A stretch of DNA of 64,000 nucleotides from an uncultured Oscillospiraceae bacterium (GTDB taxonomy: Bacteria; Bacillota; Clostridia; Oscillospirales; QAMX01). Below, piece by piece: positions 4,266 through 63,215 of this stretch (position 1 is its first letter; each line of letters starts with the position of its first letter). Position numbers and translations under genes: made by a program. The stretch is taken from contig CAYUXI010000013.1 of the NCBI GenBank assembly GCA_964448855.1, forward strand, positions 674 through 64,673. Reading direction: 5' to 3'. Below the pieces are notes generated by a model. That model was not told the DNA's origin and ran no database searches. It worked only from the letters and a program-made list of their open reading frames with translations.

Positions 4266-5630
4266 ATGATGGACAATCAACCTTACGATTTTGACAATCT
4301 GCCGGGTGGTGAGGAATATACGCCGCCCGTCTCCAACAATGAGCTTCTGAACCGTCTGCTGTCGGAGGATTCATCACCCGCTCCGGAATCGAAGCAGCCC
4401 TCTCAGTCGTCCGAAGAGCTACCGCCCGTGGAACTACCGTCCGAAGAGCTACCGCCCGTGGAGCAACCGCTCATGGTTCAGTCGCCCAGCAAGCAGCCAG
4501 CTGCAGAGCTGCCGACTGAGCCGGATCCGCCGGACGAGGAACCGGACGATCGGCCGGAGGAAAAGCCGCGCAGCAGCATCGGCTGTCTCTCCAGCTTCAC
4601 CTACTGCATCCTGATTTTCGGCGTCTCCATTCTGCTCACGGCGCTGCTGATTCTGGCCGCCAACGATATGTTCGCGCTCGTCAAGTCCGATCAGGAAATC
4701 ACCATTGCCATCACGGACGACGATTCTCTCCGCGACATCGCCGATACGCTCTCTGACAACGGCATCATCCGCTATCCCTCCCTGTTCTGGACGTTTGCCA
4801 AAATGACCGATATGGATGACCGGATTCAGTCCGGCACCTACACGCTCAGCCCCTCCATGGACTACCGTTCCATTCTGTCCGCCATCCGCTACCGGCCAAA
4901 CACCCGGCAGGTCGTCACCGTGACCATTCCGGAGGGCATGACGCAGGACGATATTTTCGAATTGCTGGAGGAAAATGGCGTCTGCGAAGCGTATCTGCTC
5001 CGCGCCTATGCCAAATACTATGATTTTTCCTACAGCTTTCTAAAGGATCTCCCCTATTCCGACAAGCGGCTGGAGGGATATCTGTTCCCGGATACCTATG
5101 ATTTCTACATCGACGACTCGCCGGTGCGTGTGCTAAAAAAATTCCTCTCGAACTTCAGCCGGAAATGGGACGTTGATCTGAAGTCCCGCGCTGAAAATAT
5201 CAACATGAGCATCCGCGATATCACGATCATTGCATCGATGATTGAGCGCGAAGCGAAGTATGACGAGGAACGGCCTGTGATCGCCTCCGTCATACACAAC
5301 CGTCTGCGCAGCAGCCGGTTCCCCCATCTGCAGATTGACGCCACGGTGCAGTATGCCCTGCCGGAATGGAAGGAGCATCTGACCGAGGAGGACCTCAAAA
5401 TTGACAGCCCCTACAACACGTATCTCTGCGAAGGGCTGCCGATCGGGCCGATCTGCAACCCCGGTCTGGCCGCCATCCGTGCAGTGCTGTATCCGGAGGA
5501 TACGAACTACTACTACTATGTCGCACGGAAAAACGGCTGGCATTACTTTGCCTCCACCTATGACCAGCATCAGGAAAATATTCGCCGGGCGTCTGAAGAA
5601 GATCTTTTGACGCCGGGGGATGCCTCTTAA
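4266..5630 (+). CDS. mltG: Endolytic transglycosylase MltG (YceG family) with an acidic Pro-rich N-terminus
   Basis: VTIPEG, LEGYLFPDTY, IASMIEREA, LQIDATVQY, SPYNTY, GLPIGPICNPG; single TM segment. Confidence 0.92.
   Translation: MMDNQPYDFDNLPGGEEYTPPVSNNELLNRLLSEDSSPAPESKQPSQSSEELPPVELPSEELPPVEQPLMVQSPSKQPAAELPTEPDPPDEEPDDRPEEKPRSSIGCLSSFTYCILIFGVSILLTALLILAANDMFALVKSDQEITIAITDDDSLRDIADTLSDNGIIRYPSLFWTFAKMTDMDDRIQSGTYTLSPSMDYRSILSAIRYRPNTRQVVTVTIPEGMTQDDIFELLEENGVCEAYLLRAYAKYYDFSYSFLKDLPYSDKRLEGYLFPDTYDFYIDDSPVRVLKKFLSNFSRKWDVDLKSRAENINMSIRDITIIASMIEREAKYDEERPVIASVIHNRLRSSRFPHLQIDATVQYALPEWKEHLTEEDLKIDSPYNTYLCEGLPIGPICNPGLAAIRAVLYPEDTNYYYYVARKNGWHYFASTYDQHQENIRRASEEDLLTPGDAS
4408..4462 (+). 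repeat. Two identical 25-bp units with 30-bp period (SEELPPVE x2) in the mltG N-terminus
   Basis: CGTCCGAAGAGCTACCGCCCGTGGA at 4408-4432 and 4438-4462. Confidence 0.9.
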
Positions 5631-5653
5631 ATTACGGAAAGGATTGTTTCATT

Positions 5654-7387
5654 ATGGAGTATCATCTGAAATGTTCGGACGCGTTTCGTGCGTCCTGTTC
5701 CGAGTCCTGCCCCGAGCCGGGCATTGTTTTGCTGCATCTGACTGCGGATGCCGTGGTGTCGCCCGCCAAGCTGGAGCTGACCGTTTACTGGGAGATGCCA
5801 AATGCCGGCATTGCTCTGACATGGACGCCCGGCAACTATCGGGATAAGATCGTCGGGCCGAACTGGCGGCGGCTGAACGATTCGTGTGGGATGTCCGGTG
5901 CGCCGATCTATGTGAGCGTCGGCGACCACGATCAGAACTGTCTGACCATCGCCTGCTCGGACGCTAAAAATCGTGTCGGGATGCGCACCGGTGTGATTGA
6001 GGAGAACGGCTGCATGGACTGCCGCGTCCGCATCAACGTGGACAGCGCCATTTCGCACTACGAGGCGGATATCCGTCTGGATCACCGCGACCTGCCGTTT
6101 TACAAGTCGATTCAGGATGTCCAGCGCTGGTGGACGACCTATGACGGCTATACGCCCGCACCCGTCCCGTCGGATGCGCGGGAGCCGCTCTACTCCGCCT
6201 GGTACAGCTACCATCAGGCCATCGACGTGCCCGCCATTGTGCGCGAATGTGAATACTTCGCCAAGCTGGGGGCACGTGTGTTGATCGTCGATGACGGCTG
6301 GCAGACCGATGACGGGAACCGCGGCTATGACTACTGCGGCGACTGGCAGACCGCCGCTTCCAAGGTGCCCGATATGCGCGCCTTTGTCGATGCGGTTCAC
6401 GCGCAGGGGATGAAGTTTGTCCTCTGGTATTCCGTTCCGTTCGTCGGCGAATACACCGCCGCCTATGAGCGGTTCAAGGACAAGCTGCTCGGCACACGCG
6501 GGCACAACAATACATCCAAGACGCACGTGTTTGATCCGCGCTATCCGGAGGTTCGCGCTTATCTGATTGACCTGTACCGGAAGGCCGTGCTGGATTGGGA
6601 TCTGGACGGCTTCAAGTTTGACTTTGTGGACGCCTTCTATCAGTCGGATGAAACGGCGGAGGGCATGGATTATGTCTCGGTCTACGACGCGGTGGATCGT
6701 TTGATGAAGGACGTCATTGCCGAGCTGCGCACCATCAAGCCGGACATTCTGATCGAGTTCCGGCAGTCCTACATCGGCCCGCTGATGCGCACCTTCGGCA
6801 ATATGTTCCGCGTGGGCGATTGCCCCTGCGACGCGCAATCCAACCGCCTTTCCTCCCTCGCGCTGCGGATGCTCTGCGGCAACACCGCCATTCACTCCGA
6901 CATGGTCATGTGGCATCCGGAGGTCTGTGCGGAGCAGGCGGCCTATCAGCTGACCAGCGTGCTCTTTGCCGTGCCGCAGATTTCCGTCCGGCAGGATCAG
7001 CTTTCGCCGGAGCAGGCGGAAATGGTCGCCGCGTATCTCGCGCTGTGGCGGAAATACCGGGATGTGCTGCTCGACGGGGAAATGTTCTACCATGGCTATG
7101 CCAACGATTTCCCGTATGTCTCCTCGCGCAAGGGCCATACGCAGGTCGGTGCCGTCTACGGCGGCATGATCGCCTATTTCCCGGAGGTGACCGACGAGAT
7201 CGTCCTCGTCAACGCCTCGCCGGACAGCCGCATTCTGCTGGATGCGCCCTGTGCCGGAACGTATCGCTACACCATCGCGGATTGCTGCGGCAAACCGGCC
7301 GGCAGCGGCACCGTCGTGCTCAACGGTGCCTTCCCGGTGATTGATCACGTCCCGGTCAACGGCGTGGTCACGCTGACTCGCGCATAA
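5654..7387 (+). CDS. Glycoside hydrolase family 36 (alpha-galactosidase-like)
   Basis: PLYSAWY, IVDDGWQ, DGFKFDF nucleophile motif, FRVGDCP. Confidence 0.85.
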   Translation: MEYHLKCSDAFRASCSESCPEPGIVLLHLTADAVVSPAKLELTVYWEMPNAGIALTWTPGNYRDKIVGPNWRRLNDSCGMSGAPIYVSVGDHDQNCLTIACSDAKNRVGMRTGVIEENGCMDCRVRINVDSAISHYEADIRLDHRDLPFYKSIQDVQRWWTTYDGYTPAPVPSDAREPLYSAWYSYHQAIDVPAIVRECEYFAKLGARVLIVDDGWQTDDGNRGYDYCGDWQTAASKVPDMRAFVDAVHAQGMKFVLWYSVPFVGEYTAAYERFKDKLLGTRGHNNTSKTHVFDPRYPEVRAYLIDLYRKAVLDWDLDGFKFDFVDAFYQSDETAEGMDYVSVYDAVDRLMKDVIAELRTIKPDILIEFRQSYIGPLMRTFGNMFRVGDCPCDAQSNRLSSLALRMLCGNTAIHSDMVMWHPEVCAEQAAYQLTSVLFAVPQISVRQDQLSPEQAEMVAAYLALWRKYRDVLLDGEMFYHGYANDFPYVSSRKGHTQVGAVYGGMIAYFPEVTDEIVLVNASPDSRILLDAPCAGTYRYTIADCCGKPAGSGTVVLNGAFPVIDHVPVNGVVTLTRA

Positions 7388-7398
7388 AGCATTTCAAA

Positions 7399-7435
7399 AA
7401 CCGCCCCGGGCTGTTTGACACAGCTCGGGGCGGTT
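7399..7435. terminator. Hairpin between the convergent GH36 and hypothetical genes
   Basis: AACCGCCCCGGGCTG-tttgaca-CAGCTCGGGGCGGTT. Confidence 0.75.
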
Positions 7436-7496
7436 GCATTGTCTGTTTCAGGTACGGCGCGCGGGTGGGGTGCAGAAAAATCGCGGGTGGAGTGCG

Positions 7497-8243
7497 TCAG
7501 GCATAGCGGTACAGGTTTTCCCGGCCGCTCCGGCCAACGCACGAAACGGCCTGCATGGAGACGAGCAGGTTCAGCGCCTGCTGGGCATCGCGTCGGCGGA
7601 TATGCGCCGCAGCGGCCAGAACGGCGCTGGTAAACGGTTCCTCCATCCCCTGCGGCAGCAGGGCTGCATAGTCGGCGGGTGTGCGCAGGGCGATGACGGA
7701 GCGCAGCGCGGTGGGGATTTTTTCATAGCGCGTTGCGTGGCGTTTTCGCGTTTCGCCGGTTCCATCCAGCAATCGGTATTCGTCCAGCGTCAAGCAGACG
7801 AGATCGACCGTCAGCCCCGGCATTTGCAGCCGGGATTTGAGCGCACAGAGCTCCGACAGCGCCTCCAGCGGCTTGCCGTGGAGGCGGGAGCGCCTCGTTT
7901 CCACAACCTCCCCGCTCGTCGGCTCCAGCCAGAGGATGCGCGCATCGGTCACCACCGGGCAGACGATTCGAACATCCGTCACCGGCAAAAAGGCGTCCAG
8001 CTTCCGCGCCAGCCGGTGCAGCTGTGCCGTCTGGATTTCCACGGCGCACGTTTCCGTCAAGGCATCCGTCACGTAGCCCTGCAGCTTGCGTTCGTGGCGC
8101 GTCTCGTCCGGCTCATAGAAGTATTTCAGCGTGAGGTGCAGCGTTTTTTCGCCGAGAGAGCCAATCCCGTTTTCGCCGCGCTGCGCCTCGGCGGCGCGGA
8201 GGCAGGCTTCCGCAAACGATTGCTGCTGTTCCGTCTCAGTCAA
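7497..8243 (-). CDS. Conserved hypothetical protein, possible PD-(D/E)xK nuclease-like fold
   Basis: TTG start after GGAAGGAG; GIGSLGEKTLH and YVTD...VEIQT motifs; extended -10 TGGTATAAT upstream. Confidence 0.6.
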   Translation of the reverse strand: MTETEQQQSFAEACLRAAEAQRGENGIGSLGEKTLHLTLKYFYEPDETRHERKLQGYVTDALTETCAVEIQTAQLHRLARKLDAFLPVTDVRIVCPVVTDARILWLEPTSGEVVETRRSRLHGKPLEALSELCALKSRLQMPGLTVDLVCLTLDEYRLLDGTGETRKRHATRYEKIPTALRSVIALRTPADYAALLPQGMEEPFTSAVLAAAAHIRRRDAQQALNLLVSMQAVSCVGRSGRENLYRYA

Positions 8244-52191: not shown

Positions 52192-53127
52192 TTATTGCAG
52201 ACCCATTGCCGCGTTCAGGCGTTCTGACAGCTCATGCGCGGCGTTGTAGCCCATGCGTTTGTTGCGGTCGTTCATGGCGGCGACCTCAATGATGATGGCC
52301 AGGTTGCGCCCCGGGCGCACCGGAACCGTCAGGGACGGCACGTCGATGCCCAAAATGTTCGTATATTCCGTATCCTCGCCCAGGCGGTCATAGATTTTGC
52401 CCTCTTTCCAGGGCTCCAGATGAATCACCAGATCCACCTTTTCCGTCATTTTGACGGCAGCCATACCAAACAGGCGCTTGACGTCAATGATGCCGATGCC
52501 GCGCAGCTCGACGAAGTGGCGAATGATTTCCGGCGCGCTGCCCACCAGCGTTTTCGACGAGACGCGTTTGATCTCGACGGCATCGTCGGCGATCAGGCGG
52601 TGGCCGCGCTTCACAAGCTCGATGGCCGTTTCGCTCTTGCCGACACCGCTGTCGCCCATGAGCAGAATGCCCTCGCCGTACACCTCAATCAGCACGCCGT
52701 GCCGGGTGATGCGCGGAGCCAGGTGGATTTTCAGCGCAGCGATCAGCGCGCTCAACGTGGTGGAAGAGTCTTCCTTTGTCCGCAGAATCGTCACGCCGTA
52801 CTCCTTCGCCAGCTCCAGACATTCGGGATACGGCTCAATGTTGCGCGTGATGATCAGCGCGGGAATGTTCATTTTGAAGAGCTTTTCCAGAGAGGAACGG
52901 CGGCGTTCCGGCGTAAACCGGCTCAGGAAGGTCGTTTCGACCTTGCCGATCATCTGGAGACGTTCATTGTCGAAGAAATCATAAAAACCGGCCAGCTGAA
53001 GCCCACAGCGATTGACGTCGTCCGAATAGACCAGAATATCCCGATAGCCCTCCGGTGCCGTTTCAACTGTAAAGGCCAGCTCATCAATCAGCGTTCCGAG
53101 TGCCACACTGTATCGGACACTATCCAT
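52192..53127 (-). CDS. hprK: HPr(Ser) kinase/phosphorylase
   Basis: RCGLQLAGF, HGVLIEVYGEGILLMGDSGVGKSETAIEL, ADD, ELRGIGII, PVRPGRNLAIIIEVAA. Confidence 0.97.
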   Translation of the reverse strand: MDSVRYSVALGTLIDELAFTVETAPEGYRDILVYSDDVNRCGLQLAGFYDFFDNERLQMIGKVETTFLSRFTPERRRSSLEKLFKMNIPALIITRNIEPYPECLELAKEYGVTILRTKEDSSTTLSALIAALKIHLAPRITRHGVLIEVYGEGILLMGDSGVGKSETAIELVKRGHRLIADDAVEIKRVSSKTLVGSAPEIIRHFVELRGIGIIDVKRLFGMAAVKMTEKVDLVIHLEPWKEGKIYDRLGEDTEYTNILGIDVPSLTVPVRPGRNLAIIIEVAAMNDRNKRMGYNAAHELSERLNAAMGLQ

Positions 53128-53207
53128 TTTGGAACATCTCCTCTCTGTTGTGAACCGGTGCATTTCCGTCGCGAAAAGCTCCCGGTTCCAATTCTCATCC
53201 ATTCTTT

Positions 53208-53237
53208 ATTATACCATATCTGTGCCCTTTCCTGCAA
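53208..53237 (-). promoter_or_regulatory. SigA promoter of hprK
   Basis: TTGCAG-18-TATAAT with extended TG. Confidence 0.6.
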
Positions 53238-53282
53238 GTCTGTGCCGTTCGGAACGGGGCGATTTCTTCTCCACTACACGCA

Positions 53283-53311
53283 TTGACGTGCGAATCGATC
53301 TATGGTATACT
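53283..53311 (+). promoter_or_regulatory. SigA promoter of the nucleotidyltransferase gene, divergent from hprK
   Basis: TTGACG-17-TATACT with extended TG at 53303-53304. Confidence 0.7.
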
Positions 53312-53413
53312 GAATTAGGAGTTCCTCGACCCGTGCATGAGCCGCGTGATGTCTCCATGACGTATGATTGTCCTGTCAGCCAGCCGTTTTTGATGAGAGG
53401 AGTGTGTCCTTCC

Positions 53414-55102
53414 ATGCCATCTATGACCGATCGATTGATGCAGTTTCTTCAGCTGCACGCATCTGCCAAATCCCCTGCAGCGTTGGATGTCGTCGCTTTC
53501 CTGTCCGCACACCGTGTTCCCCTGCCGAGCGCCGCAGCGCCTGAAGATCTGGGTCAGAAAATTCAGCTGATTACGCAGCAGTATGTCCAGACAAAGCTGC
53601 TCAATGCCATGCAGGAGTTGCTTTTGTGTTTCCAATCGCACAGCATCGACATCCTGTTTCTGAAAGGTCCGCTGCTGGGATTGGAGCTGTATGGTGAAAC
53701 CGGAATCCGTCCAACGTCCGATCTCGATCTGTTTGTTCCGGATGCTCAGGTTGCCGATGCGCTGGAGGCATTGACGCAGCTCGGTTATACCCGAACAAAC
53801 GGCACGCCCTACTCCGGGAAGGATCGTGTTTATGACCTGAACCGTGGCGATATGCGTCTGAAAATGATGGGGCGACATCTGACTGCCGTTCGATCTTCCA
53901 AAAACTGGACGATCACGCTGGAATTGCACGCCACGCTGTTTCGGCACTATGATACCGTTTCACCAACCTCTTTGGCATCACAGGCAGACCTGATTGTTTC
54001 TGACAGCCGCACCCTATCCTGTCAGGGGGTTGACTATCCCGTTCCGGGCGTTTTGGATTCGTTCCTGATGCTCTGCACGCACTTTGCACGGCATACGGTG
54101 GAAGCAGTGACCGCATTCTGTGCCAAAAAGCAGCAGCCGCGTTTTCCGCTGCATCAGCTGCATGATCTCGCACTCTTTTTTGAGCACTGGTCGGATGTGC
54201 TGTCAGCTTCCGACCTTTTGGCGCGTGCCATAGCGTTCGGCAGTCAGGCCGATCTGGCATTTGCCTGCCGCTATCTGCAGGAGGTTTACGGAATCGACCT
54301 TTGGCAATCCATTGCCCCTGATCTTTTGGGTGAAGCCGATGATGATTTTGAAAACGATATCGTATGGAGCATTTTGCGGCAGCTTTCCGCCACAGAGCTG
54401 CTGTTTTGCGCACCATCAGACAATCTTGCCCGTTTGAAAAGCGTTGCTCCTGCTCGCCGCTGTTATGAGCTCCAGACCGGGCGCGAGCTTTCTGCCGTTC
54501 TGGCCGACTGCGAGGTTCGGGAGGTCTTTGATGATCCGTCCCGGCCACCTTTGCGGGAGCCTTATTCCTTTCGTTGGGGTGCTGCGCGTTCAGATGATCA
54601 GCTCATGTTTTGCGTGGAAATTCCAACAGAGCGTGTTGTTTTTCTGGAAGGATGCCAGAAAAACTTTCGTCGCAACTGTACCCGCTCCGACTGTCCGAGA
54701 GACTGTGCTGCGCAGCACGGCGCCAACACGCTGATTCGTTTGCTGCTGCCCGGAACCTGCTGTTCAGTCGAGGCCGGAAGCTGCATGAATCGCTATGAAA
54801 TCAGCGTGATCCAGACAGCAGAAGGTCTCCGGATAACCGCAGACCGCAATGGGCATCCATTTGCTCTATCCGGTGCGGCTGTTGCAGAGAAAGATGGCTG
54901 CTGGCAATTTCGGTTTCAGTTGCCGATACCTGATCCCGGCGATTCCAACGCGCTGCCTTTTATGATTTCCCGTGAAATTCTGCTTCCATTTGCTCACCGT
55001 CCGGATCAGGCCATCGCCTTCAGCGTGCGCTGGCTGAACAGTGTGGCGGTTTCACATCAGACCTGTCTGAGCTGCGGGCTGCTGCTGGCATCCCGCCGGT
55101 GA
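53414..55102 (+). CDS. Nucleotidyltransferase family protein (NTP_transf_5-like) with a C-terminal extension
   Basis: FLKGPLLGLELYGETGIRPTSDLDLFV signature, LELH, LCTHFARH, LHDLAL; RBS GAGAGGAG. Confidence 0.8.
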   Translation: MPSMTDRLMQFLQLHASAKSPAALDVVAFLSAHRVPLPSAAAPEDLGQKIQLITQQYVQTKLLNAMQELLLCFQSHSIDILFLKGPLLGLELYGETGIRPTSDLDLFVPDAQVADALEALTQLGYTRTNGTPYSGKDRVYDLNRGDMRLKMMGRHLTAVRSSKNWTITLELHATLFRHYDTVSPTSLASQADLIVSDSRTLSCQGVDYPVPGVLDSFLMLCTHFARHTVEAVTAFCAKKQQPRFPLHQLHDLALFFEHWSDVLSASDLLARAIAFGSQADLAFACRYLQEVYGIDLWQSIAPDLLGEADDDFENDIVWSILRQLSATELLFCAPSDNLARLKSVAPARRCYELQTGRELSAVLADCEVREVFDDPSRPPLREPYSFRWGAARSDDQLMFCVEIPTERVVFLEGCQKNFRRNCTRSDCPRDCAAQHGANTLIRLLLPGTCCSVEAGSCMNRYEISVIQTAEGLRITADRNGHPFALSGAAVAEKDGCWQFRFQLPIPDPGDSNALPFMISREILLPFAHRPDQAIAFSVRWLNSVAVSHQTCLSCGLLLASRR

Positions 55103-55203
55103 AGCTTTCGTCGTTTGCTGCAGCCGCCAATTCGCAAAGCCGAATCGGCTGATTATCGAACCTGTACTCGACACATTTGCCAGACCGGGACATCGCATAT
55201 GAA

Positions 55204-55402
55204 TTGAAGGATTTTTACAATTTTGGTGTTGGTATGGTGGTGTATTTGTGAAAGCGCAGACTGAACCTGTTTCAGGTGATGTCTGCGCTTTTTTCGTTTT
55301 TTTGTAAAGAAACGGCCATACCATTGCACCGACAAGGAATCAATAAGGAGAAGGTCGGATCATGGGAACTGAATGGAAAAAGAGTCGGTATGCATTCTTT
55401 AT
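55204..55402 (+). repeat. Copy 1 of the duplicated rSAM leader plus first 13 codons
   Basis: 55204-55296 matches 55547-55638 (2 substitutions, 1 T indel); 55338-55402 is identical to 55687-55751 (65 bp). Confidence 0.95.
55251..55294 (+). terminator. Intrinsic terminator-like hairpin in leader copy 1
   Basis: AAAGCGCAGAC...GTCTGCGCTTT followed by a T-tract. Confidence 0.7.
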
Positions 55403-55433
55403 GTTTTCTATGTTTCTTTCACTAAGCTCTTGA
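55362..55433 (+). pseudogene. Truncated 5' stub of the rSAM gene (MGTEWKKSRYAFF + 10 unrelated residues)
   Basis: Identical RBS and first 13 codons to the 55711 CDS, then TGA at 55431-55433. Confidence 0.75.
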
Positions 55434-55458
55434 CAGTCGAATGAAAATCTGATATAAT
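55430..55458 (+). promoter_or_regulatory. Perfect-consensus SigA promoter upstream of the rSAM operon
   Basis: TTGACA (55430-55435), 17 nt, TATAAT (55453-55458). Confidence 0.9.
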
Positions 55459-55546
55459 TTAGATAATTAAAGAATTCAATGATTTCATCAGTAAGCAACC
55501 AGATGAGCCCGCACTCAGTTTAGCATGCAAAGAAACCGCATGGTAT

Positions 55547-55751
55547 TTGAAGGATTTTTACAGTTTTGGTGTTGGTATGGTGGTGTATTTGTGAAAGCGC
55601 AGACTGAGCCTGTTTCAGGTGATGTCTGCGCTTTTTCGGGCTTTGCCAAGAAAAATCAAAACCGGTCATACCATTTATCAGCAAGTAATCAATAAGGAGA
55701 AGGTCGGATCATGGGAACTGAATGGAAAAAGAGTCGGTATGCATTCTTTAT
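55547..55751 (+). repeat. Copy 2 of the duplicated leader (the one attached to the intact rSAM gene)
   Basis: See copy 1; contains hairpin 55594-55634, RBS AAGGAG and ATG 55711. Confidence 0.95.
55594..55636 (+). terminator. Terminator-like hairpin inside the rSAM 5' leader (attenuator candidate)
   Basis: 11-bp stem plus T5 between the promoter and the start codon. Confidence 0.65.
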
Positions 55752-57033
55752 TGAGCAGGAAAATGGCGAAATGATCATTTATCATTCGGCAACAGGTTTT
55801 ATCTTACAATGTACAGAACCGGAATACATTGAAAAGGCAGTAAAGATCGCCAATCAATCCGTTTTTGAAATGGATGAAGAAAATGACCTGATGTGTTTGC
55901 TACGAGACAAAGGCGTTCTTTTGGCAAACGATTTTGACGAAGATGCTCAAGTTCGGCAATTGTACGATCGGGTCGTTATGCACAGGAATCAACTTTCTCT
56001 GACATTAATTGTAACGAGGCAGTGTAATTTCCGTTGCGTTTACTGCGGTCAGAAACACGAGAGCAACAAGCGTATGTCTCGTGAAGTCTATGATAGAATC
56101 ATATCGTTGATCGAAAAAACATGCCATGATAAAAAGATAGACAGTGTCTCTGTTTCTTTTTTTGGCGGAGAACCGCTTTTGGAATGTGAAAGAATTCTAT
56201 ATTTTTTGGATAAATTACAGGAATTTTCAAAAAAGACCGGGATTCCCTATTATGCAGGAATGACCACAAATGCATATTTGCTGACGAAAAATAATTTTGA
56301 GCGTTTGGCACAGCTGAATTGTTTGGATTATCAAATAACACTGGATGGTATGGATGAGACTCATGACCAAAAAAGATATCTCATAGGAAAAAGGAAAACA
56401 TGGAAAACCATCGTAGATAATCTGCTCTATATCAAGTCAACAGATTATCCTTTTAAAATCATTTTGAGGACAAATTTCGATACAGAAGTTTTGCAATCAG
56501 TAGATTCTTATTTGAATTTCGTATCGGAAAATTTGAATGATGATCGTATCCTGATGTATCATGAAACCATTAAAGACCACGGGAATCCCGAACAAAACGA
56601 ATACATGTCGCAATCTGAAGCAATTTTCAGCAATGTCGAAATTTCCCGTCTTTTGAAAGAGAAGAATTTGAAATCGTCACTTGTTTTTTCTTCAACAACC
56701 CCTGCCTGTTCGATGTGTCGAGCAGGAATTCCTGATTATTATGTAATCGATTACGATGGAAGTATCAAAAGATGTACTCACCGATTGGATACCGAACCAA
56801 ACTACCTAGGAAATCTGTCAGATGATGGTTCCATGATCATTGACCATTCTCTGGATGCAAAATGGATTTATCGGGACTATTTGTCTGATGATAAATGTAA
56901 AGAGTGCAAATTACTTCCTCTGTGTTTTGGAAAACGTTGTCCTGTTGCGCGGGTAGACCCCCAATTGGCGTTCGACTGTAACAAAGATTTACGTGCTTTG
57001 GAATTGGAGGAAATCCTACGCGTTCATTTGTAA
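55711..57033 (+). CDS. Radical SAM/SPASM peptide maturase
   Basis: CNFRCVYC (CxxxCxxC), FFGGEPLL, TTNAYLL, QITLDG; SPASM Cys ACSMC, KRC, CKECKLLPLCFGKRCP, FDC; ~85-aa N-terminal extension (RRE-like). Confidence 0.92.
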   Translation: MGTEWKKSRYAFFIEQENGEMIIYHSATGFILQCTEPEYIEKAVKIANQSVFEMDEENDLMCLLRDKGVLLANDFDEDAQVRQLYDRVVMHRNQLSLTLIVTRQCNFRCVYCGQKHESNKRMSREVYDRIISLIEKTCHDKKIDSVSVSFFGGEPLLECERILYFLDKLQEFSKKTGIPYYAGMTTNAYLLTKNNFERLAQLNCLDYQITLDGMDETHDQKRYLIGKRKTWKTIVDNLLYIKSTDYPFKIILRTNFDTEVLQSVDSYLNFVSENLNDDRILMYHETIKDHGNPEQNEYMSQSEAIFSNVEISRLLKEKNLKSSLVFSSTTPACSMCRAGIPDYYVIDYDGSIKRCTHRLDTEPNYLGNLSDDGSMIIDHSLDAKWIYRDYLSDDKCKECKLLPLCFGKRCPVARVDPQLAFDCNKDLRALELEEILRVHL

Positions 57034-57074: not shown

Positions 57075-57212
57075 ATGCATGTGATTCAAGATGCAGCGAC
57101 CCCCGCAGTGATTGCACGCAGAGCGCAAAGCAATGGTTGTGATTGCAATTGTGATTGTCATGGTGGTTCCGGTAGCTCCGGGGGAACCAATTGCAATTGT
57201 CATTGCAGCTAA
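57075..57212 (+). CDS. Cys-rich RiPP precursor 1, 45 aa: MHVIQDAATPAVIARRAQSNGCDCNCDCHGGSGSSGGTNCNCHCS
   Basis: Manual translation, not in the ORF track; strong RBS GAAAGGAGG 6 nt upstream; 7 Cys; paralogous to precursor 2. Confidence 0.88.
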   Translation: MHVIQDAATPAVIARRAQSNGCDCNCDCHGGSGSSGGTNCNCHCS

Positions 57213-57246
57213 TCGTCCCAATCTGCACAACAATTTTATTGAAAGG

Positions 57247-57390
57247 ATGAGAAAATACCATATCTTAAAAGACATTACGATTCCTGCGTCCATTGCACGC
57301 AACAACCAGGAAAATGGTTGTGATTGCGATTGTAATGAAGGTTGCAATGGCGGTTCTGCCGGTAGAAATTGCCACTGTCTTTGCAGCTAA
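57247..57390 (+). CDS. Cys-rich RiPP precursor 2, 47 aa: MRKYHILKDITIPASIARNNQENGCDCDCNEGCNGGSAGRNCHCLCS
   Basis: 3' half of track ORF 57112-57390; aligns with precursor 1 in leader and core; start uncertain because GAAAGG abuts the ATG. Confidence 0.82.
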   Translation: MRKYHILKDITIPASIARNNQENGCDCDCNEGCNGGSAGRNCHCLCS

Positions 57391-57397
57391 GCCGTCT

Positions 57398-57437
57398 GTC
57401 ACGGCAGGCAGATTTTTTGAAATCTGCCTGCCGTGAC
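57398..57437 (+). other. 18-bp perfect stem-loop between the precursors and the ABC gene
   Basis: GTCACGGCAGGCAGATTT-tttg-AAATCTGCCTGCCGTGAC; no strong U-tract follows. Confidence 0.85.
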
Positions 57438-59313: not shown

Positions 59314-60192
59314 GTGCCTGTATATTGTATATACGGTTTGTCCGTGGAATCCAATCTCGACTTGTCTGATGTAGATGCAGGTCATCCGGGGATCTGTGAT
59401 ATGCGGCTCCATGTGTCCTTTGCAGAAATGCCACCGGTTCAGCCCATACGGATTCTGGAATCTGAGCAATGGTTGACCATTGAGCTCTTCCCCTTCGCGG
59501 TTTATCGGTTGAGCAGGCATTCCAATGATGTTTTTTGTCAGGCTGCGGATTATGAGTCCTTTTACTCAACATTTTTCAATCTGCCGTTTTCGGTCTTTCT
59601 TGTACAACGCGGCGATCTGCTTTTGCATGCCTCATCACTGGTTCACAGTCAGACAGGTGAGTTGCTCGCTTTTGCCGGACAGAAAGGTGTCGGAAAAAGT
59701 ACGCTGGTACAACTTCTGTGTGGGGAAACGTATCAGATTTATGCAGATGATACCCTACGAATTCCGATGGATACCTCAATGGGATTTCGAGGAAATTCGC
59801 TTTTGAAAATAACACCGGAGACATCTGCCCTCATTCAGGGCAGGCTGCAACTGACGGGACATCAAAATGCAGTCGGAAAAAATTATGCAGCTATTCCAAC
59901 AGACTCCCGGCAACGTCAGATTCGGGCAATTGTTCAATTGGCACGAACTTCGGATGCGTCTTTTTCCATCCGACCGGTGAACACCCCGTTACAGCGTACA
60001 CAAATCATCTGCAGGCACCTGACAGGTATCCCATTCTGGACAGCTTCTATGATTCAAAAGGTCATGCAGCTTGTCAAAAGCGTTGAAATACCTGTTTATT
60101 CCATGCGAATCCCCGATTCTCTGCATTGGTTGGAGCAGCAAACGCCGGACATACGCTCTGCGCTTGAACAGGTAACGAACGAAATTCCCTGA
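59314..60192 (+). CDS. HPr-kinase-like protein of the lasso-cluster (PadeK/PsmK-like) type
   Basis: N-terminal YCIYGLSVESNL, LLHASSL, GQKGVGKSTL Walker A, YADD; GTG start after GAGGAG. Confidence 0.75.
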   Translation: MPVYCIYGLSVESNLDLSDVDAGHPGICDMRLHVSFAEMPPVQPIRILESEQWLTIELFPFAVYRLSRHSNDVFCQAADYESFYSTFFNLPFSVFLVQRGDLLLHASSLVHSQTGELLAFAGQKGVGKSTLVQLLCGETYQIYADDTLRIPMDTSMGFRGNSLLKITPETSALIQGRLQLTGHQNAVGKNYAAIPTDSRQRQIRAIVQLARTSDASFSIRPVNTPLQRTQIICRHLTGIPFWTASMIQKVMQLVKSVEIPVYSMRIPDSLHWLEQQTPDIRSALEQVTNEIP

Positions 60193-60563: not shown

Positions 60564-63215
60564 TCAGCGCACTTCGTCGGGTGAATAGACTTCACCGGTC
60601 AGCACCGGGTGGCAGGTCAGACGGCCATCGGCTGCGTCGAGCACGAGGGTGGAGCCGGCATCCAGATTGCCTGCCAGAATTTCGCGGGCAATGAGCGTTT
60701 CCGCCATGCTTTGCAGGCAGCGTTTCAGCGGCCGTGCGCCGTAAACCGGGTCGTAGCCCTGATCGATGATGAGCGCCTTGGCCGCATCGGTCACTTCCAG
60801 CTGCAGTCCGCCCGCGGCGCGGTCGGCCATACGCGTTTGCAGACCGGCCAGCAGCAGATCGACGATGGCGTTCAGGTTTTCCTTGGTCAGCGGTTTGAAG
60901 AAGACGATCTCGTCCAGGCGGTTCAGGAATTCCGGTCGGAACGCTGTCCGGAGCTCAGCCTGCACACTGGCGCGTGCAGCTTCGCTGACGGAGCCGTCCG
61001 GCAGGATGCCGTCCAGCAGATACTGGCTGCCGAGGTTGGAGGTCAGGATGATGATCGTGTTTTTGAAATCGACGGTGCGACCCTGGCTGTCGGTGATGCG
61101 GCCATCGTCCAGAATTTGCAGCAGGATATTGAACACATCCGGGTGCGCCTTCTCCACCTCATCGAACAGGATGACGCTGTACGGGTGGCGGCGGACGGCT
61201 TCGGTGAGCTGGCCGCCCTCGTCATAGCCGACATATCCCGGAGGCGCACCAATCAGGCGGGACACGCTGAACTTCTCCATGTACTCCGTCATGTCAATCC
61301 GCACCAGACTGCGCTCGTCATCGAACAAGCTCTCGGCCAGCGTTTTGGCCAGCTCCGTTTTGCCGACACCGGTCGGCCCTAAGAAGAGGAAGCTGCCGAT
61401 CGGGCGGTTGGGGTCTGCGATACCGGCACGGCTGCGCTGAATGGCTTCGCTGACCAATCGCACCGCCTCATCCTGTCCGACGACGCGCCGGTGCAGGATA
61501 TCCTCCAGCCGCAGCAGCTTTTCCCGTTCGCCCTCGACGAGCCGGGATACGGGGATGCCCGTCCAGCGCCCAACGACCTCGGCTATCTCCTCATCGGTCA
61601 CGGTGGAACGGACGAGTCGGTTCTGGTTCTGCCGTTCTGCCATCTGTTCGGCCTCCGCCAGCTGTTTTTTCAGCGTCGGCAGCTCGGAATATTGCAGGCG
61701 CGCCGCCTTTTCATATTCGCCGTGCAGCTGAGCCTGTTCCATTTCGCCGGTTTTCTTCTCGATCTCCGTTTTGATTTGCTTAACGGTTTCCGCCGCTTCC
61801 TTCTCCGATGTCCAGCGCGCCTTCATTTCGCGGAGCTGATCCTGCTTTTCCGCAAGCTCCGCCGTCAGCTTGGCCAGACGGTCTTTGGAGAGCTGATCCT
61901 CCTCTTTTTTCAGCGACATTTCCTCGATTTCCATCTGCATGATCTCGCGGCGCAGATCGTCCAGCTCGCTCGGCATGGAGTCAATCTCCGTGCGAATCAT
62001 GGCACACGCCTCATCGACCAGGTCAATCGCCTTATCCGGCAGGAAGCGGTCGGTGATATACCGGTTGGACAGCGTGGCCGCCGCCACCAGTGCGTTGTCG
62101 TGGATGCGGACGCCGTGGAAGATTTCATACCGCTCCTTCAGTCCGCGCAGGATGGAAATCGTATCCTCCACGGTCGGCTCCTCGACGATGACCGGCTGGA
62201 ATCTCCGTTCCAGCGCGGCGTCCTTTTCGATGTATTTGCGGTACTCGTCCAGTGTGGTCGCACCGATGCAGTGCAGCTCGCCACGCGCCAGCATCGGCTT
62301 CAGCAGGTTGCCCGCGTCCATGGAGCCCTCTGTTTTCCCGGCACCGACAATCGTGTGCAGTTCATCGATGAAGAGCAGGATGCGGCCGTCCGCCTTTTTG
62401 ACCTCATTCAGGACGGCTTTCAGGCGCTCCTCAAATTCGCCGCGGTATTTTGCACCGGCCACCAGTGCGCCCATATCCAGCGAAAAAATCGTCTTTTCCT
62501 TCAGGCCGTCCGGCACGTCGCCCCGCACGATTCGCTGCGCCAGTCCCTCAGCGATGGCGGTTTTCCCGACGCCCGGTTCACCGATCAGGACGGGGTTGTT
62601 TTTGCTTTTGCGGGACAGGATGCGGATCACGCTCCGGATTTCGGCGTCCCGGCCGATGACCGGATCCAGCTTCTGCGCCCGTGCGCGTTCGACCAGGTCT
62701 GTGCCGTATTTGTTCAGCACGTCATACGTATCCTCCGGATGGTCGCTTGTCACCGGTGCGCTTTTCACGCGGGACAGCTCCTGCAGGAAGCGTTCCTGCG
62801 TCACGCCGTGCCGTTGGAAAATCCCCTGTACCGTCCGGCCGCCCTCGGCAATCAGACCCAGCATCAGGTGTTCAACGGAGAGGTATTCGTCCTTCAGCTG
62901 TTCCGCCATTTTTTCGGCATAGCGGAGCACAGCCGACACCTCGTTCGACGGATACAGGTCGCCGCCCGTCCCCGTCACCTTCGGCAGCCGTTCCATTTCG
63001 GCATTCAGCTCGCCCAGCATGGCGCCGACCAGATCGGTGTTGCCGCTCTGCCGGCCCATCCGTTCCAGAAGCGTCCCGATCAGGCCGCCCTCCTGCGACA
63101 GCAGCGCATACGCCAGGTGCTCCGGTGCGAGCGTCTGATTCTGTTTGTCCCGCGCCAGATTTTGTGCGCGGTTGATCACATCTATCGTCTTTTGTGTCAT
63201 TTTTTCTGCATTCAT
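60564..63215 (-). CDS. clpB: ATP-dependent chaperone ClpB
   Basis: Two AAA+ modules ([17 protein letters not shown]), coiled-coil M-domain, [18 protein letters not shown]. Confidence 0.97.

Follow-up and report, generated by a model that had tools for sequence, protein, structure and literature searches.

Serine-ended precursors accompany an HPrK-like kinase and a nucleotidyltransferase in radical SAM peptide cassettes of uncultured Clostridia

Gene content of the cassette

We analysed a stretch of 64,000 nucleotides from an uncultured Oscillospiraceae bacterium (assembly GCA_964448855.1, contig CAYUXI010000013.1, positions 674 to 64,673 of the forward strand), hereafter called the window. 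Between 53.4 and 60.2 kb it carries a five-function cassette for a peptide that is ribosomally synthesised and then modified post-translationally (RiPP), the genes of which are co-directional on the plus strand. This report concerns the kinase encoded by the last gene of the cassette and the serine with which both of its precursor peptides end. The features are as follows.

53414..55102, plus strand: nucleotidyltransferase-like protein of the NTP_transf_5 family (Pfam PF14907, 1.2e-29)
55711..57033, plus strand: radical S-adenosylmethionine (rSAM)/SPASM peptide maturase, 440 aa (Pfam Radical_SAM and Fer4_12, CNFRCVYC motif)
57075..57212, plus strand: precursor P1, 45 aa, Cys-rich core GCDCNCDCHGGSGSSGGTNCNCHCS, ends Cys-Ser-stop
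57247..57390, plus strand: precursor P2, about 47 aa, start uncertain, core GCDCDCNEGCNGGSAGRNCHCLCS, ends Cys-Ser-stop
57398..57437, plus strand: perfect 18-bp inverted repeat directly 3’ of P2, conserved in the related locus L005
57484..59298, plus strand: ATP-binding cassette (ABC) exporter, permease and ATPase fused (Pfam ABC_tran, 4.9e-30; NCBIfam MsbA/NHLM-type exporters)
59314..60192, plus strand: HPrK/PEPCK-like P-loop kinase, 292 aa, uncurated subfamily, catalytic candidates H105, K128, D145 and D146

A sequence-only reading of the kinase region had placed the product on a scaffold other than a lasso peptide, and the gene content bears this out: the cassette encodes the NTP_transf_5 protein, the rSAM/SPASM maturase, two precursors, the ABC exporter and the kinase but lacks a cyclase, a B protein and PqqD. 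Specifically, Pfam and NCBIfam searches of the cluster proteins found no Asn-synthetase-like cyclase (C), no transglutaminase-like protease (B/B2) and no PqqD-like RiPP recognition element (B1), and the same scans found no C39 peptidase domain in the ABC exporter. Lasso genes were likewise absent from all of the related kinase loci described below.

The maturase, directly upstream of the precursor genes, combines the CxxxCxxC core (CNFRCVYC) with Radical_SAM and Fer4_12 domains, and 599 homologues were found at E<=1e-20. It aligns end to end with the NCBIfam SPASM peptide maturases CefB, TIGR04463, geopeptide, Clo7bot and PapB, with E-values of 1e-32 to 5e-53, all of these matches being sub-threshold; it belongs to none of the named equivalogs CefB, TIGR04463, PapB and SCIFF maturase, scoring 180.6 vs 600 for CefB and 112.5 vs 340 for PapB. 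The Cys-rich rSAM/SPASM RiPP systems around these models (CefB “Cys-every-fifth”, TIGR04463, Clo7bot, geopeptide and the PapB/freyrasin ranthipeptides) share with the window the similarity of the maturase, short precursors with repeated Cys and an ABC exporter. Their cores are built on C-x3-D or Cys-every-fifth patterns, whereas the core motif in the window is G-C-[DN]-C-x-C. We know of no kinase/nucleotidyltransferase pair described in the CefB, TIGR04463, Clo7bot, geopeptide or PapB systems.

The 292-aa protein falls in the HPrK/PEPCK-like superfamily

The sequence-only reading had called the 292-aa protein an HPrK-like kinase on the strength of short motifs. These are present as described, namely Y4-x-x-Y7-G-L-x-V-x-S, L-H105-A-S, G-Q-K-G-V-G-K128-S-T and D145-D146. 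The assignment itself stands at the level of the superfamily, where profile, fold and catalytic residues agree, and does not extend to any curated HprK-related family. The protein has no PF07475 (Hpr_kinase_C) match in the Pfam scan and lies below threshold for all the curated HprK and HprK-related models tested (PF07475, TIGR04352, TIGR04355).

Family size was understated by a word-index protein search, which returned 6 kinase clusters. When 1.84 billion representatives were searched exhaustively with a profile, 1151 relatives appeared at E<=1e-3, 43 of them at E<=1e-30. In an alignment of 128 relatives the invariant columns are H105, G127, K128, D145 and D146, with no others. HprK_rel_A is matched by 56 of the 128 and HprK_rel_B by 55 (best E 2.7e-11), and about 45% match one or the other; fewer match the genuine HprK, ScmC (6/128) and phosphoenolpyruvate carboxykinase (PEPCK) models. 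When the profile of the 128 relatives was aligned by hhalign with the window’s own housekeeping HprK, the probability was 90.6% over 81 columns, and the His, Walker A motif (P-loop) and Asp-Asp pair fell in register.

An AlphaFold2 model computed from the 128-sequence alignment has a mean predicted local distance difference test score (pLDDT) of 96.2 and a predicted template modelling score (pTM) of 0.92, and supersedes an earlier model from 6 sequences (pLDDT 64). The 50 best Foldseek matches to it in the PDB are all PEP carboxykinases (E down to 4e-9, TM 0.5-0.6). The C-terminal catalytic domain of HPrK and PEPCK have the same fold. Generic ABC and GTPase P-loops also occur among the sub-threshold Pfam and NCBIfam matches; we discarded an identity as ABC ATPase because these matches are confined to some 25-60 residues around Walker A and the fold of the whole protein is PEPCK-like. 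Together, profiles and predicted structure place the 292-aa protein in the HPrK/PEPCK-like superfamily, with an intact catalytic set, as a member of a subfamily of its own. This subfamily is recognisable by the motifs FFSTLFNIPFS, LLHACS, G-KGVGKSTL, FSDDTLRI and NIVGI-YF, and no Pfam or NCBIfam model captures it.

Precursors of kinase-bearing cassettes end in serine

P1 reads MHVIQDAATPAVIARRAQSNGCDCNCDCHGGSGSSGGTNCNCHCS and P2 reads MRKYHILKDITIPASIARNNQENGCDCDCNEGCNGGSAGRNCHCLCS. Their genes close with CAT TGC AGC TAA and CTT TGC AGC TAA, respectively, so that both end TGC AGC TAA (Cys-Ser-stop), as the sequence-only reading had noted. Since P1 and P2 are recent paralogues, with 88% identity over the last 24 nt, this common ending is weak evidence within the window, and the signal exceeds chance only across lineages.

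Related loci (numbered with the prefix L) were drawn from GTDB genomes, metagenomes and exact-protein look-ups, the metagenomes being scanned with a profile from 28 kinase sequences. Cassettes with the kinase gene yielded 15 distinct intact precursors, spread over about 8 diverged lineages, and every one ends in Ser; the set includes L022, where the kinase is frameshifted, and L019, where the contig is cut by an insertion sequence (IS) after the precursor and the kinase is unseen. Among eight lineage representatives, position -1 is the sole invariant of the last 8 residues and is always Ser; the penultimate residue varies (C, T, G or N), and Ser makes up 6.6% of the remaining core positions. 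P1 has orthologues in L005, L016 and L019. The C-termini are listed below.

Window P1: NCNCHCS
Window P2: NCHCLCS
L005 P2: KCNCRCS
L016: NCNCRCS
L019: NCNCRCS
L001: CNCGCGTS
L006 and L007: PTINPGCS
L029: PTFNPGCS
L030: PTVNPGCS
L023: INVGACS
L011: CDNCVETS
L015: GCRCVTAGS
L010 and L014: GAGTQCCNS
L022: CNCGCGYTS

As a control, we used four related rSAM and ABC loci that were checked by profile to have neither the kinase nor NTP_transf_5. One of their seven peptides ends in Ser.

L024 (Tepidibacter thalassicus): ends GCGCGCE
L025: ends CGYGCKL, gene call uncertain
L028: three peptides, ending S, C and G
L026 and L027: both end SLNP (P and P)

Conservation of the terminal serine in kinase cassettes had been set beforehand as a point on which the sequence-only reading could fail; the residue is invariant in intact precursors where the kinase gene is present and not conserved where it is absent. 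In a rough neighbour-joining tree of the maturases, the kinase-positive L010, whose precursor ends in Asn-Ser, groups with kinase-less loci that have GCGC-type cores. Thus, the terminal serine tracks the kinase/nucleotidyltransferase pair.

The nucleotidyltransferase is inherited with the kinase

Wherever the context is readable, the kinase and the NTP_transf_5 protein are both present or both absent: the latter occurs in 100% of the kinase loci that can be read, the kinase-less loci all lack it, and in every readable locus its gene adjoins that of the kinase or shares its cassette. K84, R99, D103-x-D105 and H155 are invariant in 9 cassette nucleotidyltransferases, consistent with these being active enzymes of the nucleotidyltransferase fold. 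The window protein has in addition a C-terminal extension of about 270 aa, to which no function is assigned and which the short (about 300 aa) NTP_transf_5 proteins of L016 lack.

The best-described counterpart is PsmN of the pseudomycoidin cluster, an uncharacterised NTP transferase in the words of its description, whose D134A/D136A mutant is inactive (PMC6993621). Additions of +162 and +324 Da to the phosphorylated Ser depend on PsmN, and the product is resistant to phosphatase (PMC6993621). Whether it glycosylates directly or nucleotidylates first is unsettled in the literature (PMC9266682, PMC6993621). PsmN and the window protein are alike in being NTP transferases encoded with an HPrK-like kinase and in their Asp-x-Asp motif (D134/D136 in PsmN, D103/D105 in the window). 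The two were compared by description.

Comparison with the lasso peptide kinases

The lasso peptide kinases share a His-Lys-Asp-Asp motif that is essential by mutagenesis (reviewed in PMC9266682), and PsmK D158A/D159A is inactive (PMC6993621). This tetrad corresponds here to H105, K128, D145 and D146, invariant in the 128 relatives. Like PadeK, ThcoK, SyanK and PsmK, the window kinase is a small stand-alone HPrK-like P-loop protein in a RiPP cluster with the His-Lys-Asp-Asp set conserved. In the lasso systems, too, the precursors share little beyond an invariant C-terminal Ser, and the kinase often has an uncharacterised nucleotidyltransferase as its partner (PMC9266682, PMC6993621). In contrast to the lasso clusters, the window has an rSAM/SPASM maturase and Cys-rich cores with no lasso cyclase, B1/B2 or PqqD, and its kinase belongs to a separate subfamily that matches no curated HprK-related model above threshold. 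A further relative is ScmC of the SynChlorMet systems (TIGR04249/PF27840), an HPrK-like P-loop protein that curators tie to radical SAM/SPASM peptide cassettes; the match of the window kinase to ScmC is very weak, however (E 0.004).

Proposed pathway and its alternatives

We propose that the maturase crosslinks the C-x-C-rich core (the conserved G-C-[DN]-C-x-C region), probably through thioethers like its nearest named relatives. The kinase would use ATP or GTP to phosphorylate the hydroxyl on the side chain of the precursor's last Ser by means of the His-Lys-Asp-Asp set, a step that we infer from homology and from co-variation. The nucleotidyltransferase would next modify the phosphoserine, either by the hexose addition that is linked to PsmN or by nucleotidylation, which is the least certain of the steps, and the ABC transporter would export the product. 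As a whole, this scheme of terminal Ser phosphorylation by the kinase on an rSAM-crosslinked peptide, decoration of the phosphate by the nucleotidyltransferase and export by the ABC protein is in our view reasonably probable.

The phosphate might instead be a mere leaving group: elimination from the terminal Ser would give a C-terminal dehydroalanine, to be converted by hydrolysis to a C-terminal amide or captured by a nearby Cys, with no phosphate in the product. Phosphorylation followed by elimination is the established class III/IV lanthipeptide route (see PMC8341899 for background), the penultimate residue is often Cys, and the cores are full of Cys nucleophiles. However, that residue is not conserved, the Pfam and NCBIfam scans found no lyase domain among the cassette proteins, and the lasso HPrK-like kinases, which are the closest precedent, leave a stable mono- or polyphosphate (PMC9266682, PMC6993621). 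A strictly co-inherited nucleotidyltransferase also fits the decoration of a retained phosphate better, and we hold elimination to be quite improbable. Unlikely too, though to a slightly lesser degree, is that the NTP_transf_5 protein nucleotidylates the Ser hydroxyl directly, for example by AMPylation, and that the HPrK-like protein has another job, be it to phosphorylate some other residue or a small-molecule donor, or to work in export or immunity as a phosphorylase or ATPase. A nucleotidyltransferase fold with an invariant DxD is competent for direct transfer, and genuine HprK is bifunctional, being both kinase and phosphorylase. That the exact PsmN reaction is unsettled (PMC6993621, PMC9266682) points the same way. 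Yet the PsmN-dependent mass in pseudomycoidin was found only on peptide that was already phosphorylated (PMC6993621), and the kinase tetrad is invariant here. The terminal Ser co-varies with kinase and nucleotidyltransferase alike, so that the data do not tell the two enzymes apart, but they offer no ground for dropping the kinase step.

A different kind of explanation detaches the serine from the kinase altogether: the residue would be kept for recognition by the maturase or the exporter, or by phylogenetic inertia, and its link with the kinase would be coincidental. In favour of this are the kinase-positive maturases, which are mostly one clade, and the one kinase-less peptide (in L028) that ends in Ser within a small negative set. 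But Ser is the sole invariant of the last 8 residues although the maturases are 37-48% and the kinases about 30% identical to those of the window, related rSAM and ABC proteins serve peptides ending in E, C, G or P, and L010 groups with kinase-less loci and is Ser-ended all the same. We give this explanation very little credence.

Several observations weigh against phosphorylation and decoration of the terminal Ser as proposed above. The best NCBIfam match of the kinase is HprK_rel_B (TIGR04355), at 24.1 bits vs a cut-off of 200, and sequence searches of the PDB with the single protein and with the profile returned mostly generic P-loops, with one Hpr(Ser) kinase (3tqf, E 2e-4). Its likeness to PadeK, ThcoK and PsmK was drawn from published descriptions. 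The kinase-positive maturases form largely one clade in the rough neighbour-joining tree, so conservation of the Ser may in part reflect shared ancestry, and the controls are few, 4 loci with 7 peptides, of which one is Ser-ended and one (L025) is an uncertain call. In L005, the P1 orthologue (7739-7906) has its TAA changed to CAA and gains ten residues (QPSKSNKVVD), so that the Ser is no longer terminal; the P2 copy of this genome is intact. L013 (604-2496, on a contig of 2.9 kb) encodes a 289-aa kinase of the family about 0.9 kb upstream of a multi-Cys peptide that ends CQPGNRFG and not in Ser, a peptide that we take to resemble the SCIFF type. Finally, no leader peptidase is evident within the window.

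Implications

Because the Ser-ended peptides of these cassettes always come with a lasso-like kinase and a nucleotidyltransferase, the Ser-tail chemistry probably works on a second scaffold. The broader idea, that the HPrK-like kinase and NTP_transf_5 form a portable module for tailoring C-terminal Ser, recruited to at least two unrelated RiPP scaffolds (lasso, and rSAM-crosslinked CxC-rich), is in our estimate evenly poised. Phosphorylation is rare among natural-product peptides. In a paper of November 2025 the phosphorylated RiPPs named as examples are limited to microcin C, two lasso peptides, phospeptin, salivaricin 10 and that paper's own cyanobactins, and HPrK-type kinases are placed in lasso peptides only (PMC12639078). 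In the literature that we searched, no rSAM RiPP with an HPrK-like kinase or with the kinase/nucleotidyltransferase pair was found. The tailoring pair appears to be a known one and its host scaffold new, the chemistry itself being proposed.

If the proposed pathway is true, C-terminal Ser phosphorylation and PsmN-type nucleotidyltransferase addition would extend to radical SAM peptides made by Clostridia of the human and animal gut. NTP_transf_5 chemistry could be resolved on a simpler substrate that is not a lasso, and kinase family, nucleotidyltransferase and Ser-ended peptide together would make a rule for genome mining. Should the module prove portable, these products would constitute a new RiPP subclass with C-terminal phospho-, polyphospho-, phosphoglycosyl- or phosphonucleotidyl-serine, for which the terminal Ser would be a marker readable from sequence.

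Distribution, gene order and decay

The hosts are uncultured Clostridia annotated as Oscillospiraceae, Eubacteriales or Clostridiales. With the exception of the 2.9-kb L013, all intact kinase homologues with enough contig are accompanied by a homologous rSAM protein, a small Cys-rich open reading frame (ORF), an ABC exporter and NTP_transf_5, and some relatives have an additional protein of 320-350 aa of no recognised family. The closest relative of the window, L005, comes from an Oscillospiraceae metagenome-assembled genome and has flanking genes identical in kind. With N for the nucleotidyltransferase, R for the rSAM protein, A for the precursor, T for the transporter and K for the kinase, the gene orders are:

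N-R-A-T-K: window, L005
K-N-R-A-T: L001, L010
R-A-T-K-N: L006, L007, L011, L015, L016, L023, L029, L030

Five cassettes are decayed, each in its own way. L004 (7688-7978) has a deletion from the rSAM gene to the precursors that removed most of the former and all of the latter; in L008 (9887-10357) the kinase N-terminus is fused to a precursor tail; L009 has lost most of its nucleotidyltransferase gene, its rSAM gene and its precursor gene; in L014 (8939-10054) the N-terminus of the nucleotidyltransferase is fused to a truncated rSAM protein that has lost the first Cys of CxxxCxxC; and L022 (9310-10036) carries the kinase frameshift. These independent decays suggest frequent loss of the trait. 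Some copies adjoin IS elements, a serine recombinase or Rad52/PcfM-type genes. Together with the many decayed copies, such mobile-element neighbours suggest that the trait is accessory and subject to turnover; it may be a bacteriocin or a signal.

Boundaries and expression signals in the window

Upstream, the cassette is bounded by the housekeeping HprK gene (52192-53202, minus strand; TIGR00679, 366 bits), which is accompanied by a gene for an HD-domain protein. This HprK adjoins the cassette only in the lineage of the window, L004 and L005. We considered it as a partner of the cassette and rejected it, since it is a full-length canonical HprK and its adjacency is confined to one lineage; its position looks coincidental. 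The downstream boundary is an opposite-strand gene (60564-63215) for a large AAA+ chaperone, the translation of which looks like ClpB.

The NTP_transf_5 gene lies in a longest ORF from 53129 to 55102, its likely start being an ATG within 53357-53414, and a promoter-like site is found at 53283-53311. P1 has a good ribosome-binding site (AAAGGAGG). The 18-bp inverted repeat is probably a transcription attenuator or terminator that separates the precursor genes from the exporter gene. For the exporter, the longest ORF begins at GTG 57433 and the likely start is ATG 57484, with a gene call in L004. The kinase ORF starts with GTG, 8 nt downstream of GAGGAG.

The start of P2 is doubtful: its ATG in the window (57247) falls inside a Shine-Dalgarno-like AAAGGA (region 57240-57265), and the L005 orthologue (region 7900-7945) has no ATG, GTG or TTG after its AAGGAGG. 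Because that orthologue lacks a canonical start codon, translation of P2 may begin non-canonically, or its expression may be poor. Ahead of the rSAM gene lies a tandem duplication of about 345 bp, with copies at 55189-55402 and 55532-55751 that are 92-99% identical; it takes in the ribosome-binding site and the first 40 nt or so of the rSAM gene. Between the copies, at 55430-55458, there is a promoter-like site that matches TTGACA-17-TATAAT perfectly and has an extended -10 TG.

Neighbouring systems in other genomes

A plasmid collection gave one weak kinase match, in pTM1 of Tistrella mobilis (L032, 603939-618253), and no match to the nucleotidyltransferase query. The HprK-like gene of this plasmid is flanked by two sulfotransferase genes, a nucleotidyltransferase-family gene and a glycosyltransferase gene, with no rSAM or lasso cyclase gene within 7 kb.

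The cassette of L016 (3798-15331; also L017 and L018) encodes the closest non-conspecific rSAM protein, at 66% identity, and is larger than that of the window. It contains two genes for short (about 300 aa) NTP_transf_5 proteins, a glyoxalase-like gene, two ABC exporter genes and genes for a PP-binding carrier protein and a 485-aa protein that looks FkbH-like by sequence motif. These hint at additional tailoring.

Next to the cassette of L023 lies a separate cluster (4869-7762, minus strand) with a ScmC-family protein (PF27840), a PqqD protein and two small peptides. We considered whether the serine rule covers this cluster and set the cluster aside: the peptides are not Ser-ended, and its ScmC-type protein, which sits with PqqD, lacks the Asp-Asp pair. 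A 38-aa peptide and a 353-aa secreted protein there share the C-terminal motif GWSDWWTPE[FY].

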